From assembly GCA_918292005.1 (NCBI GenBank), contig CAKJZJ010000007.1:21411-85410 (forward strand): DNA of 64,000 bases, read 5' to 3'. Every line of letters starts with the position of its first letter. Position 1 is the first letter of the stretch. The position numbers and the translations under genes are program-made. Below, one piece after another: positions 25,611-43,088 of the stretch. The notes under the pieces were generated by a model. That model had not been told where the DNA came from, did not search any database, and was given only the letters and a program-made list of their open reading frames with translations. Source of the stretch: Clostridiales bacterium (GTDB lineage: Bacteria; Bacillota; Clostridia; Christensenellales; UBA1242).

Positions 25611-25787
25611 ACTTACTCCTATGTTTTTTTACTTCCATTTTATTATAGTACAGCCTGTAAAAAAAGTCAAAAATTTAGCAAAATTTTAGACAGATTTTAG
25701 ATATTTTTTATTTGTTTGTACAATCTATAAATATATAGAAAAATATTAATATATATAGCGAATTAGTTTTTTATTTTCGACAAATTG

Positions 25788-25796
25788 TGCTAGAAT
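25788..25796 (+). promoter_or_regulatory. Extended -10 promoter element upstream of the giant gene
   Basis: TGC-TAGAAT (TGn + -10) lies 42 nt upstream of the ATG. The -35 region is weak. Confidence 0.4.
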
Positions 25797-25838
25797 GTAC
25801 TATGTAAGACTATAAATTTTATTTAATAGGTGATTTGA

Positions 25839-40638: not shown

Positions 40639-43053
40639 ATGACGAAGCTGAAAAAATATGTAGTTTTAATATTCATACTAGTTGTGAGTCTGGTCACACC
40701 TATTTTTGCTGGGTGCGATTTTGATTTTAGTTTCGCTACTGGTGGACTAGACACCCCGGTACTAAATATTAATGAGACTACATACACACTCAGTTGGACC
40801 AGTATTGCTAGAGCAAAAAGTTATACTGTATACTGTAATGATGAAGTATTAGAATCGGATATCAAAGATAGAACATATAATTACGAAGACACACTCACAG
40901 AGTCGGGTGTATATACATTCTATGTCAAAGCAATACCATATCTGAGTAGCATACCAGAGAGTGCCAATAGCAATACAGTATCATGTGTGTATAATGTAGA
41001 GCCTATCATCTGGGCAGACGATATTACTATTGATCGCACACAAAATATTCCTATTAGAAAAAATGGTTTGCGTGGTGTGTCATTCGATAGAACAATAGAA
41101 AATGTAGAATACGAATTGTATTTGTATTCAGCACATACCGGACTCAATGTCTATCCTGTAGATGCAGGAATCAATACTATCAATCTCAATCTATACAATC
41201 TCAGGAATGAAATTTATGCTGTACGTATGGGCTATATTGATGGCGAAGACCATTATGTAGCAAGTAATGTAATATATATCAATCCTGACAATTCAGATGG
41301 GTTTACTGACAATATCTACCTATTTGACGGACAAATTAACGACTTTTATATAGAGAATGTAATGGAATTGAGAAATCTAGTTTACTACGCATTCATATAT
41401 AGAATGTCTAGTGTAGAGATGCAATTATCTAGGGCATTCGCTACGGCTATAGATGGCTCGTCAGAAGCAGGCACCATGGTAGATAAAGTAAATCAGGCTG
41501 TGGTAGATGCATTCGGATATTTATTCGAGACGTGCGATTCGTACGACATCTCTACCGAGCAGGATAGTGCAGTCAATCGTATATATACCACCACTATTGG
41601 TTGGGGAGACACTGCTGTCAATAATCAATTATACCCAACTAGTTCTATAGTGGGTGCTGGGGATTTTGTATATCCACAAGTCAATATGGACGGATATTAT
41701 GATGTGTGTGGATACACCATGCTCAAAGATGCATATGCCGAGCCGTATGACGAATTTGTATCAGACAATAGATTTCTATACACTACAGTTAGAACTAGCG
41801 AAGAACTATATTGGGCTGTAGAAAATCATGTTACACCAATATTCGCCAGTACCACCTGTCCTGCGTATGTCATTTACGCCAAGGCTAAAAATGTTCTGCG
41901 TGAAATAATATCTGAAGATATGACCGACTATGAGAAGGCACTATGTATATTCGACTGGATAGCCATTAATACACAGTATGACTACTATTCATTGACCAGT
42001 AGGTCATATTATGGATATCCTATTACCACTGTACCATGCTACTATCTAGAAGGAGTATTCAATACACACTTTGCCGTATGTGATGGCTTCTCAAAAGCAT
42101 ATAGTCTAATGTGTAATATGCTAGGCATAGATGCTATAAGAGTGGTGGGTACAGCACAGTCGGGTTCTTCTTCGGGTGGTCATGCTTGGAATAAAGTTTA
42201 TCTAGATATGGACACTACCGACGATACTCCTGCCCAATGGTATATCTGTGATATTACCTGGACGGAGATTACATCTCAGCACGAAGAAGCAACCACACAT
42301 ATGTATTTTATGTTATCAGATAGTGATGTAAGTAGTACTCATATACCATTCAATCGTAGGTCGGAATTTTTCATTATGCCAGCAGATACACACTACGATT
42401 ATTACGATAATAGTACTTTCAATTATCTGGATATTGATTACGATTATGTCATCAATAGCGAAGACGAATTGGAAGCAATGTTCTATTATATGTTAATATA
42501 CCAACGTAAAACTATTGAAGTAGTTATTACCAAAAATCTAGTAGAAAGGGCATATCGCCAATACGAGTCCCAGACCACACTCACTGCGGATAGATTTACA
42601 CGCATGGAGCAGGCACTGCAACTCATGATGAAAAAGAAAAAATTCGCCGAACAGTATTTATTCATTAATAGGACAGAATTCTCTAATGATTGGTTTGAGT
42701 ATAATAGTAATGGGGATAAAGGTGTGCTATATATATTCGAGCAACACTTCCTAATAGATAGTGCCAATGAAGAAGGTCATTTGATTACCAATCTTGCTCA
42801 CTACGGACTCTATGGAACGTATAGCCTGTGGGTAGAGAGAGATATACTAGATACTATTGTACTAAATGATAGCGAAATGGCTGGTAAAGATGATTTGCAA
42901 TTAGACCTACTCAGAGTACAGAAATTATTTGAGAATACTCTAAATGCAAATAATATTGATGCCACATTTGAGATTTTGACCATTGGTATTGCTGACGATC
43001 CTAGATATCTATCTCAGTCGCACTATACCATGACCATATCGCCCAAAGAGTAA
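40639..43053 (+). CDS. Lipoprotein with an N-terminal Fn3-like module and a transglutaminase-like (Cys-His-Asp) core
   Basis: Lipobox LVTPIFAGC. The module TYTLSWTSIARAKSYTVYCNDE is the same type as in the giant protein. The core is FAVCDGFSKAYSLMCNMLG ... GGHAWNKVYL ... WYICDITW. Confidence 0.75.
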   Translation: MTKLKKYVVLIFILVVSLVTPIFAGCDFDFSFATGGLDTPVLNINETTYTLSWTSIARAKSYTVYCNDEVLESDIKDRTYNYEDTLTESGVYTFYVKAIPYLSSIPESANSNTVSCVYNVEPIIWADDITIDRTQNIPIRKNGLRGVSFDRTIENVEYELYLYSAHTGLNVYPVDAGINTINLNLYNLRNEIYAVRMGYIDGEDHYVASNVIYINPDNSDGFTDNIYLFDGQINDFYIENVMELRNLVYYAFIYRMSSVEMQLSRAFATAIDGSSEAGTMVDKVNQAVVDAFGYLFETCDSYDISTEQDSAVNRIYTTTIGWGDTAVNNQLYPTSSIVGAGDFVYPQVNMDGYYDVCGYTMLKDAYAEPYDEFVSDNRFLYTTVRTSEELYWAVENHVTPIFASTTCPAYVIYAKAKNVLREIISEDMTDYEKALCIFDWIAINTQYDYYSLTSRSYYGYPITTVPCYYLEGVFNTHFAVCDGFSKAYSLMCNMLGIDAIRVVGTAQSGSSSGGHAWNKVYLDMDTTDDTPAQWYICDITWTEITSQHEEATTHMYFMLSDSDVSSTHIPFNRRSEFFIMPADTHYDYYDNSTFNYLDIDYDYVINSEDELEAMFYYMLIYQRKTIEVVITKNLVERAYRQYESQTTLTADRFTRMEQALQLMMKKKKFAEQYLFINRTEFSNDWFEYNSNGDKGVLYIFEQHFLIDSANEEGHLITNLAHYGLYGTYSLWVERDILDTIVLNDSEMAGKDDLQLDLLRVQKLFENTLNANNIDATFEILTIGIADDPRYLSQSHYTMTISPKE

Positions 43054-43057
43054 ATAA

Positions 43058-43088
43058 AAAACACAGACTGTATCTGTGTTTTTTTATT
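43058..43088. terminator. Bidirectional terminator closing the surface locus
   Basis: Stem ACACAGA / TCTGTGT with a 5-nt loop, flanked by A6 and T7. Confidence 0.65.

Follow-up and report, generated by a model that had tools for sequence, protein, structure and literature searches.

A seven-gene locus of uncultured Clostridia probably encodes a SipW-dependent surface fibre accompanied by a transglutaminase-like and a giant lipoprotein

We analyzed a 64,000-nucleotide stretch of DNA from a Clostridiales bacterium (GenBank assembly GCA_918292005.1, contig CAKJZJ010000007.1, positions 21,411 to 85,410; hereafter the window), and within it a locus of seven plus-strand open reading frames (ORFs) that occupies positions 25839–43053 and has an even G+C content of about 37–40%. 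In order, these genes encode a giant lipoprotein, a SipW-like signal peptidase, four paralogs (P1 to P4) and a transglutaminase-like lipoprotein (TG). Our results suggest that the product of the locus is probably a surface fibre of the TasA/BsaA superfamily that depends on SipW and is made of several different subunits. This interpretation is founded on a gene for an endoplasmic reticulum (ER)-type signal peptidase directly upstream of the four paralogs, on the homology of each paralog family to proteins with the SipW-dependent signal peptide, and on the co-inheritance of the seven-gene set.

The signal peptidase and the four paralogs

The product of the sipW-like gene passed the Pfam model PF10502 (Peptidase_S26; 31.5 bits against a cut-off of 22.9) and barely reached TIGR02228, the model for archaeal-type signal peptidase I (51.9 bits against 51.85). 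The equivalog model for Bacillus SipW was not reached (38 bits against a cut-off of 190). The protein has an N-terminal membrane helix, a serine in SSTSMEP, a histidine in THRI, a GD box, a C-terminal membrane helix and a DDIECYE tail, and 14 orthologs keep the serine box (as SSGSMEP), the THR, the GD box, the C-terminal helix and the tail. The peptidase of the locus is a signal peptidase I of the Ser-His, ER/archaeal (SipW) type (S26B), with no Lys. A first-pass annotation, made from the sequence before our analysis, had recognized it as such; the two passed models and the SMEP, THR and GD elements kept in 14 orthologs bear this out. Nearly all of the motifs quoted in that annotation could be located, among them SMEPT, THRI and the C-terminal transmembrane segment, YAWLKTS, SSWFRD and AAWYIRTKSD, and the lipoboxes.

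The four ORFs that follow had been described as TasA-like. A transitive chain of profile comparisons gives good support to P1–P4 being distant paralogs within the SipW-dependent TasA/BsaA superfamily. The chain starts from P3, whose 126 close homologs are all unnamed, carry no Pfam domains and come from metagenome-assembled genomes of Clostridia and Christensenellales. The P3 sequence of the window was itself absent from the assembly records. A HMMER search with the P3 profile over 1.84 billion representatives returned only 64 proteins, with relatives at E 1e-6 to 1e-4, and a second protein search with an extended P3 alignment returned near relatives only. Family-model scans took in 52 of the 64 proteins. 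Fourteen of these matched TIGR04088 (cognate_SipW, the SipW-dependent signal peptide), the seven that were checked scoring 23–37 bits against a cut-off of 19. Matches to TIGR04090 (the BsaA family, six proteins) and TIGR04089 (four proteins) lay below the cut-offs where checked individually, and 12 proteins matched Peptidase_M73 just below its cut-off (best score 22.2 against 22.5), mostly over the first ~50 positions.

These bridge proteins bear the canonical junction VGGTLAYFTD. A bridge profile made only of the seven TIGR04088-positive proteins was compared by hhalign with each family of the locus, over 116–202 columns. It aligned to the P3 family with a probability of 99.3% (E 9e-21), to P2 with 96.9% (E 1.3e-10), to P1 with 95.8% (E 8e-9) and to P4 with 95.4% (E 2e-8), and reversed-sequence controls gave at most 6%. 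At the other end of the chain, a wider bridge set aligned to Bacillus subtilis TasA (82%, E 1e-5), and this alignment takes in signal peptide, junction and PGD motif. The paralogs are also linked to one another, the P2 family matching those of P1, P3 and P4 at 90–94% in profile comparison. The motifs that had been listed as common to all four proved to be unevenly distributed: V-R is invariant in all four paralogs, but PGD is found in P3 and P4 only, P2 having APD and P1 nothing comparable, and P1 is without the trailing K.

A junction of the form T-x-A/S|W-F/Y/L follows the membrane helix in register across P1–P3, at a level below that of TIGR04088. The junction in P3 is an invariant TAA|WYIRTxSD (17 of 17 orthologs) and that in P2 is T-S-S|W-F-R-D-x-x-x-T-S-N (motif present in 16 of 16). 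P1 has T-Y-A|W-L; A-W-L occurs throughout its orthologs, with W-L invariant and the A nearly so. None of 17 P4 orthologs carries a SipW-type junction motif. N-termini of the prepilin or Tad pilin type were considered and rejected on two grounds: the enzyme encoded next to the paralogs belongs to S26, and their junction can be aligned with the motif cognate to SipW.

The paralogs differ in ways that suggest different places in an assembly. P3, which also carries PGD, AYVRVK and VEAIQ, is the most conserved gene of the locus and is our candidate for the major (shaft) subunit. P1, with a membrane helix ahead of its junction and a conserved C-terminal AYPFG...LP..WTAW tail, evolves fast and is a candidate distal or minor subunit; P2, also fast-evolving, is a candidate minor or adaptor subunit. 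From its N-terminus, P4 runs through an Asn-rich head, a conserved cytoplasmic segment of ~75 residues (IDASRVS.YT.REQ..LE.LK), a single membrane helix and a linker that varies, to a presumed beta-sandwich bearing PGD. Because the junction is absent from P4 and a conserved cytoplasmic head and membrane helix are found instead, P4 is probably not cut by SipW and probably serves as an uncleaved, acceptor-only membrane anchor or terminator. With the junction missing from 17 of 17 orthologs, P4 does not look like a SipW substrate of the kind that P1–P3 are.

We noted two further features of these proteins. The low-complexity Asn-rich head of P4 (39759–39850; NNGNNNVNNSNNNGSNN) is encoded by an imperfect 12/21-nt repeat; orthologs differ widely in the length of this head, so the tract may be prone to slippage. 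All four paralogs end in conserved, Trp-rich C-terminal tails that could be a docking motif: LP..WTAW in P1 (38170–38250), W.NAP..F in P2 (38840–38907), GPWW...GD.ED in P3 (39640–39710) and W.SAP..W in P4 (40570–40628).

Two AlphaFold (AF2) models of P3, one of the full length and one from residue 36, gave a confident beta-sandwich (pLDDT 83 and 85), and the ~15 residues past the junction are invariant yet disordered in the models. The best matches in Foldseek searches of the Protein Data Bank (PDB) were an archaeal bundling pilus (7ueg), the Sulfolobus thread (7pnb), cohesins and the TasA fibre (8aur, ranked 9 and then 5 in two runs). Donor-strand filament subunits (7ueg, 7pnb and 8aur) are thus among the best fold matches, and this modelled fold is consistent with membership of the superfamily but weak as evidence.

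Several observations weigh against the fibre interpretation. P1–P4 themselves matched none of PF12389, TIGR04088, TIGR04089 and TIGR04090 at E ≤ 1, and a Pfam scan of 12 P2 orthologs gave no TasA-family match. Sequence and profile searches of the PDB with P3, the P3, P2 and extended families and the bridge set found nothing significant, the top profile match being AbpX at insignificant E-values (0.095 and 0.52). Aligned by hhalign against TasA alone (query sequence checked against 8aur and 5of1), the P3 and P2 families reached a probability below 2%, both weak alignments falling on the C-terminal EAxQ strand. TIGR04088 spans the signal peptide only, so the firmest link of the chain is at the N-terminus. 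The E-values of the Foldseek matches ran from 1e-3 to 6e-2, none being below 1e-3, at TM scores of 0.2–0.3, and cohesins scored equal to filament subunits. Further loci were collected by scanning metagenomes with TG as the seed, and in some of them (L031, L033 and L036–L038) no TasA-like gene lies within 10 kb of the TG relative. Lastly, fibre formation, cleavage by SipW, donor-strand polymerisation, the order of subunits, anchoring by P4 and the roles of TG and the giant lipoprotein are all inferred. The TasA-like label stands as remote profile homology: likeness to the TasA family was found by profile comparison, the direct TasA and camelysin models were unmatched, and the fold match was weak.

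One alternative is that P1–P4 are SipW-dependent but do not polymerise, being matrix, cell-surface or spore-associated monomers exported from what would then be a surface-protein export island. The weak fold match of P3 to filament subunits would fit such proteins. There are also precedents: TasA was first called a spore coat-associated protein (title of PDB entry 5of1), distant TG/TasA-like genes of two metagenomic loci (L032 and L034) adjoin genes that look by eye like GerABC, and BsaB, a TasA-like paralog of Clostridium perfringens, is reported to make dimers only (10.1101/2024.11.04.621531). Against these stand the segment past the junction, which does not vary but is disordered in the model, just as a donor strand should be; the top fold matches, which are donor-strand filaments; and the presence of four co-inherited paralogs, one of them keeping its membrane helix, which fit an ordered polymer better than independent monomers. 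We consider non-polymerising subunits unlikely.

The two lipoproteins and a proposed assembly

TG passed PF01841 (Transglut_core) over residues 418–538 (E 1.8e-12; 47.9 bits against a cut-off of 23), and both its triad C481/H515/D538 and its lipobox Cys26 (FAGC26) are invariant in 16 sequences. An Fn3-like module lies at residues 36–118, and a C-terminal region of ~260 residues has no assigned fold. The sole sequence relative of TG in the PDB was an uncharacterised transglutaminase-like protein, 9crn (E 2.8e-8). TG did not reach the equivalog level of NF045980 (MAG6410-family lipoprotein; 58 bits against 450), to which the core region alone is related, and family-model scans detected no peptidoglycan-binding domain. 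By these sequence criteria, TG is a predicted lipoprotein with a transglutaminase core and a Cys-His-Asp triad. The lipobox, the core and the Fn3-like module in common with the giant protein had all been pointed out in the first pass, and all were found.

The giant protein, with a signal peptide and the lipobox LLLASAFITAC|S, is likewise a predicted bacterial lipoprotein, as its sequence and that of TG indicate; its ACSCS lipobox (FITAC|SCS) is shared with the giant protein of a distant lineage, L022. Pfam and NCBIfam scans of the giant protein gave no match. When the N-terminal module of TG was used to seed an iterative HMM, nine Fn3-like modules came up in the giant protein and one in TG. 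The profile of the nine modules matched the Fn3-like protein 3mpc (E 2.6e-5) and other Fn3 chains more weakly, and the Pfam fn3 model alone stayed below threshold (E 0.13–0.31). The Fn3-like repeat reported earlier is therefore real, but only nine copies, rather than about 15, are detectable. The C-terminal domain of the giant protein, whose Gly/Val/Ile-rich repeats resemble GLUG, fell below the cut-off of that model (PF07581; 15.7 against 20.5 bits, E 0.02, two stretches). It provides the strongest match to the L022 giant protein (BLASTP, 25% identity over 408 aa, E 4.6e-10) and has no sequence match in the PDB; the last 602 aa of the giant protein drew no match at E ≤ 0.001 in a protein search. 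No tandem repeats were found in the giant gene at the DNA level, and a search of the giant protein and TG for a hidden TasA-like domain gave none. The giant gene is the fastest-evolving of the locus, its colinear orthologs being 21–29% identical.

The assembly that we propose runs as follows. SipW would cut at T-x-A/S|W, freeing the N-terminal segment that is disordered in the monomer model, and this segment would enter the beta-sandwich of the next subunit as a donor strand, in the manner of TasA, BsaA and archaeal bundling pili. The shaft would be made of P3, whose sequence is better conserved than that of any other paralog, and the fast-evolving P1 and P2 would be distal, initiator or adaptor subunits. 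P4, which has a presumed acceptor fold, lacks any motif for cleavage or donation and keeps both its membrane helix and a conserved cytoplasmic head, would take the last donor strand and tie the fibre to the membrane. TG, an extracellular lipoprotein, would act on the assembly, and the giant Fn3-rich lipoprotein would belong to it. TG might either lock subunits or adhesin together by isopeptide bonds, or cut a protein or cell-wall peptide so that the fibre can emerge. For these two lipoproteins it is co-conservation alone that suggests a role in the fibre, and we found nothing beyond gene linkage for the earlier proposal that TG attaches, cross-links or trims the fibre or the adhesin.

The two possible activities of TG can be weighed to some extent. 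As a hydrolase (a cysteine peptidase or isopeptidase), TG might open the peptidoglycan for the fibre, or trim or release the giant lipoprotein or P4. The Transglut_core superfamily holds proteases besides cross-linkers, for example the pseudomurein endoisopeptidases PeiW and PeiP, and TG would be held at the membrane face by its predicted lipid anchor. The passage of a folded polymer through thick peptidoglycan has also been raised as a problem for BsaA (10.1101/2024.11.04.621531). By contrast, no peptidoglycan-binding domain was detected, and nothing in our analysis separates hydrolysis from transamidation; a hydrolase is a tentative proposal that we hold to be somewhat unlikely. We are still more doubtful of the version in which TG is a dedicated cross-linker whose Gln-Lys isopeptides join TasA-like subunits to one another or the fibre to the giant Fn3 adhesin, with the conserved P4 head coupling the fibre to the cell interior. 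If this version is true, TG would do by catalysis what the isopeptide lock of BsaA and archaeal threads does spontaneously, and would parallel the sortase of Gram-positive pili.

Conservation and organization of the locus

The first-pass annotation had singled out gene order in relatives as telling. The order giant-sipW-P1-P2-P3-P4-TG is kept in 16 of 16 species-level genome loci where the contig allows, with differing flanks, and also in three metagenome places, so the genes are co-conserved. The records of these loci carry the names of uncultured Clostridia, Christensenellales or 'Christensenella sp.'. On a 902-kb contig of the distant lineage L022, the same parts are rearranged over both strands: one strand carries TG, a P4-like gene and a fifth, canonical TasA-like gene, and the other carries sipW, P1, P2 and P3, with the gene for a 3081-aa lipoprotein (the one with the ACSCS lipobox) convergent to them. 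Variants with five paralogs occur in L027 and L029. TG abuts P4 or a TasA-like gene in L026–L030 and L034, and among distant TG relatives a canonical TasA-like gene lies directly upstream in L034 and ~5 kb off in L032.

Identity to the nearest relative, L048, is 90% for P3, 88% for P4, 78% for SipW and 71% for TG, and falls to 59% for both P1 and P2 and 49% for the giant protein. As far as sequences can tell, this gradient would suit a fibre whose shaft and anchor are conserved and whose distal parts are exposed and diversifying.

The same data bear on whether the locus is one system. It could be two neighbours, a giant adhesin with TG as its own maturation enzyme and, in between, an unrelated operon of sipW and TasA-like genes. 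Consistent with this, the Fn3-like module is common to the giant protein and TG only, in neither of which a TasA-like domain was found; a stem-loop parts the giant gene from sipW; and some TG relatives are without TasA-like genes nearby. However, TG lies 10 nt past P4 in the window and adjoins P4 or a TasA-like gene in L026–L030 and L034, the parts remain together after the both-strand rearrangement in L022, and the order is kept in all 16 genome loci despite differing flanks. Two unrelated systems are, in our judgment, very unlikely, and a single fibre locus remains our preferred reading. None of the outcomes that the first pass had named as refuting its proposal was observed.

The layout and spacing of the seven ORFs were as first annotated (Table 1), and the start codons chosen for P3 and P4 match the N-termini of orthologs. 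An AGGTGA ribosome-binding site is present ahead of the giant gene. The extended -10 promoter proposed upstream of it is there as a motif, but promoter-like sites were no commoner in the scan than in shuffled sequences and TGcTAGAAT is a consensus match only. The strong bidirectional terminator proposed at the other end was recovered, with its stem and its A and T runs scored on both strands.

Table 1. Features of the locus and of the giant protein. Nucleotide positions are those of the window; amino acid (aa) positions are those of the giant protein.
Feature	Position	Strand	Remarks
Candidate promoter (extended -10-like TGcTAGAAT)	25788–25796	+	Consensus match; 43 nt 5' of giant-gene ATG
Giant gene	25839–36608	+	3589 aa; predicted lipoprotein
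Fn3-like modules 1–5 of giant protein	aa 664–811, 1075–1158, 1161–1250, 1359–1507, 1683–1802		Iterative HMM; first starts at nt 27828
Fn3-like modules 6–9 of giant protein	aa 1912–2013, 2500–2599, 2612–2708, 2846–2974		Iterative HMM; last ends at nt 34760
C-terminal domain of giant protein	35142–36296 (~aa 3102–3486)	+	Gly/Val/Ile-rich; GGxVA-type repeats resembling GLUG
G+C-rich stem-loop	36625–36649	+	10 bp; 17 nt past giant-gene stop; no plus-strand U-tract
sipW-like gene	36794–37444	+	216 aa; 185 nt from giant gene
P1	37444–38250	+	268 aa; 1-nt overlap with sipW stop
P2	38263–38907	+	214 aa; 12-nt gap to P1
P3	38919–39710	+	263 aa; 11-nt gap from ATG 38919 (mechanical ORF start 38850)
P4	39759–40628	+	289 aa; TTG start; 48-nt gap to P3
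TG (transglutaminase-like lipoprotein)	40639–43053	+	804 aa; 10-nt gap to P4
Bidirectional intrinsic terminator	43056–43084	both	12–13 bp stem between A-run and T-run; scored on both strands; closes locus

The seven genes had been described as running from one promoter to one terminator. Upon closer inspection of the spacer, a single transcript is doubtful. The 90 nt that contain the hairpin at 36625–36649 fold at -25.9 kcal/mol, and the terminator scan scored this hairpin on the minus strand only; a canonical intrinsic terminator is ruled out by the lack of a U-tract on the plus strand. A strong stem-loop lies within 90 nt of the giant-gene stop in 12 of 14 loci (drawn from L004–L019, L026 and the window, positions 36609–36793), with unrelated sequences that are mostly without a clean U-tract, so that position and structure are kept where the sequence is not. 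The spacer between the giant gene and sipW is 100–256 nt across loci. This recurrent stem-loop, the spacer and the opposite-strand giant gene in L022 suggest that the giant gene is at least partly a separate transcription unit, and in the proposed assembly we would expect it to be expressed partly alone, because a stem-loop follows it. The hairpin itself could be a leaky terminator or a 3'-end stabiliser that sets the ratio of products between the giant gene and sipW-TG.

Part of the wider TG/TasA-like family has a possible link to sporulation, by the look of its gene neighbourhoods. TasA is also named CotN, and Tgl cross-links the spore coat. The TG/TasA-like pairs at L032:2553-7687 and L034:13236-17072 adjoin three-gene sets that resemble GerA-type germination receptors on a by-eye reading of their N-termini. 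Nothing in this window supports a link to the spore coat, the by-eye Ger-like neighbours in L032 and L034 being the only hint of one.

Elsewhere in the window, the locus is followed (43084–45620) by a 127-aa ORF and then genes for RNHCP, RadC and DegV. The nearest relative, L048, has the identical set in the same orientation, and downstream of L001 and L002 RadC and RNHCP are on the strand of the locus with DegV on the opposite one, the reverse of the window. Divergent from the locus lies an ORF of 596 aa (23820–25610, minus strand), for which Pfam gave no match. Other candidates for surface proteins are an 805-aa protein with Listeria-Bacteroides repeats (Flg_new; 46823–49240) and a 684-aa protein with a weak Bact_surface_Ig-like match (14175–16229, minus strand). 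Just past a tRNA-Arg(cct) gene (53109–53183) the G+C content drops from ~37% to 27–31% and remains low to position 64000. The low-G+C stretch encodes a 1000-aa SF1 helicase-like protein (AAA_11/AAA_12; 53482–56484), an AAA_21 ATPase (58001–59323) whose stop abuts an RloB-like gene (59323–59949), and a Macro-domain protein (62908–63420). The interval 53109–64000 looks like a defence island inserted at the tRNA gene.

Relation to known systems

The closest parallel is the C. perfringens operon sipW-bsaA-bsaB-bsaC (PMC7395162; 10.1101/2024.11.04.621531). BsaA polymers are membrane-anchored and locked by spontaneous isopeptides, and were modelled as being extended at the membrane before SipW cleavage; BsaA/TasA genes are often found near genes for LPxTG, fibronectin, SpaA, signal peptidase and sortase proteins, with several paralogs per operon (10.1101/2024.11.04.621531). 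Like that operon, our locus belongs to Clostridia and has a dedicated SipW beside more than one TasA-like paralog; distant P3 relatives match TIGR04090, and for both it is proposed that donor-strand exchange extends the fibre at the membrane, either ahead of cleavage by SipW or together with it. By contrast, our locus has no counterpart of the von Willebrand factor A-domain protein BsaC, and its proteins fall below every BsaA/TasA model cut-off. It also has four paralogs, one of them with a probably uncleaved membrane helix and a cytoplasmic head, together with TG and the giant lipoprotein.

The tapA-sipW-tasA operon of B. subtilis likewise has a SipW-type peptidase dedicated to fibre subunits. 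The TasA junction G-T-W-A|A-F-N-D lines up with G-T-A-A|W-Y-I-R of P3, and both proteins then have the PGD motif followed by a C-terminal hxhEAxQ strand. Direct similarity of our paralogs to TasA is, however, insignificant. No TapA-like protein is encoded here, the candidate anchor being the paralog with the membrane helix rather than TapA, and two lipoproteins are added.

Archaeal donor-strand filaments (AbpA/AbpX, 7ueg and 9sj2; Sulfolobus threads, 7pnb; haloarchaeal tafi) provide the best fold matches of P3 and the best, albeit insignificant, profile match in the PDB. They are assembled chaperone-free after processing by signal peptidase. A tip-adaptor-shaft-anchor model built from several related subunits has been put forward for tafi (PMC11821415), and Sulfolobus threads are reported to be reinforced by isopeptide bonds (10.1101/2022.04.26.489512). 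These filaments differ in being archaeal, in that none is reported with a transglutaminase-like enzyme and the isopeptides are reported as spontaneous, and the similarity to them is weak (TM 0.2–0.3). Sortase-assembled Gram-positive pili offer no more than a working analogy: the genes for their tip, shaft and basal subunits come with one for a dedicated Cys-based enzyme that makes isopeptide bonds, whereas our locus has no sortase or LPXTG, the subunit fold and the enzyme family differ, and nothing shows that TG cross-links.

In our literature search, the gene combination was not found described, as the first-pass annotation had supposed; SipW, TasA and transglutaminase occurred together only in reviews, and camelysin with a transglutaminase-like protein in none. 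The general setting, multi-paralog TasA/BsaA operons beside surface proteins with fibronectin domains, is known, and the word transglutaminase does not occur in the report that describes it (10.1101/2024.11.04.621531). Loci for SipW-dependent TasA/BsaA fibres being known, what is new here is most likely the constant company of TG and a giant Fn3-rich lipoprotein.

Fibres of the TasA/BsaA type are the protein scaffold of Gram-positive biofilms and have archaeal counterparts; their initiation, termination, anchoring and reinforcement are still under study in a few model species. The locus also shows that entire branches of the TasA superfamily go unseen by the present Pfam and NCBIfam models. 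For abundant uncultured gut Clostridia, the locus is a compact, co-inherited parts list of three putatively cleavable subunits, an anchor-like paralog, a predicted Cys-His-Asp enzyme and a 3,589-residue lipoprotein, and it supplies candidates for the ordered assembly of a fibre from several subunits and for its enzymatic reinforcement or its passage through the wall.

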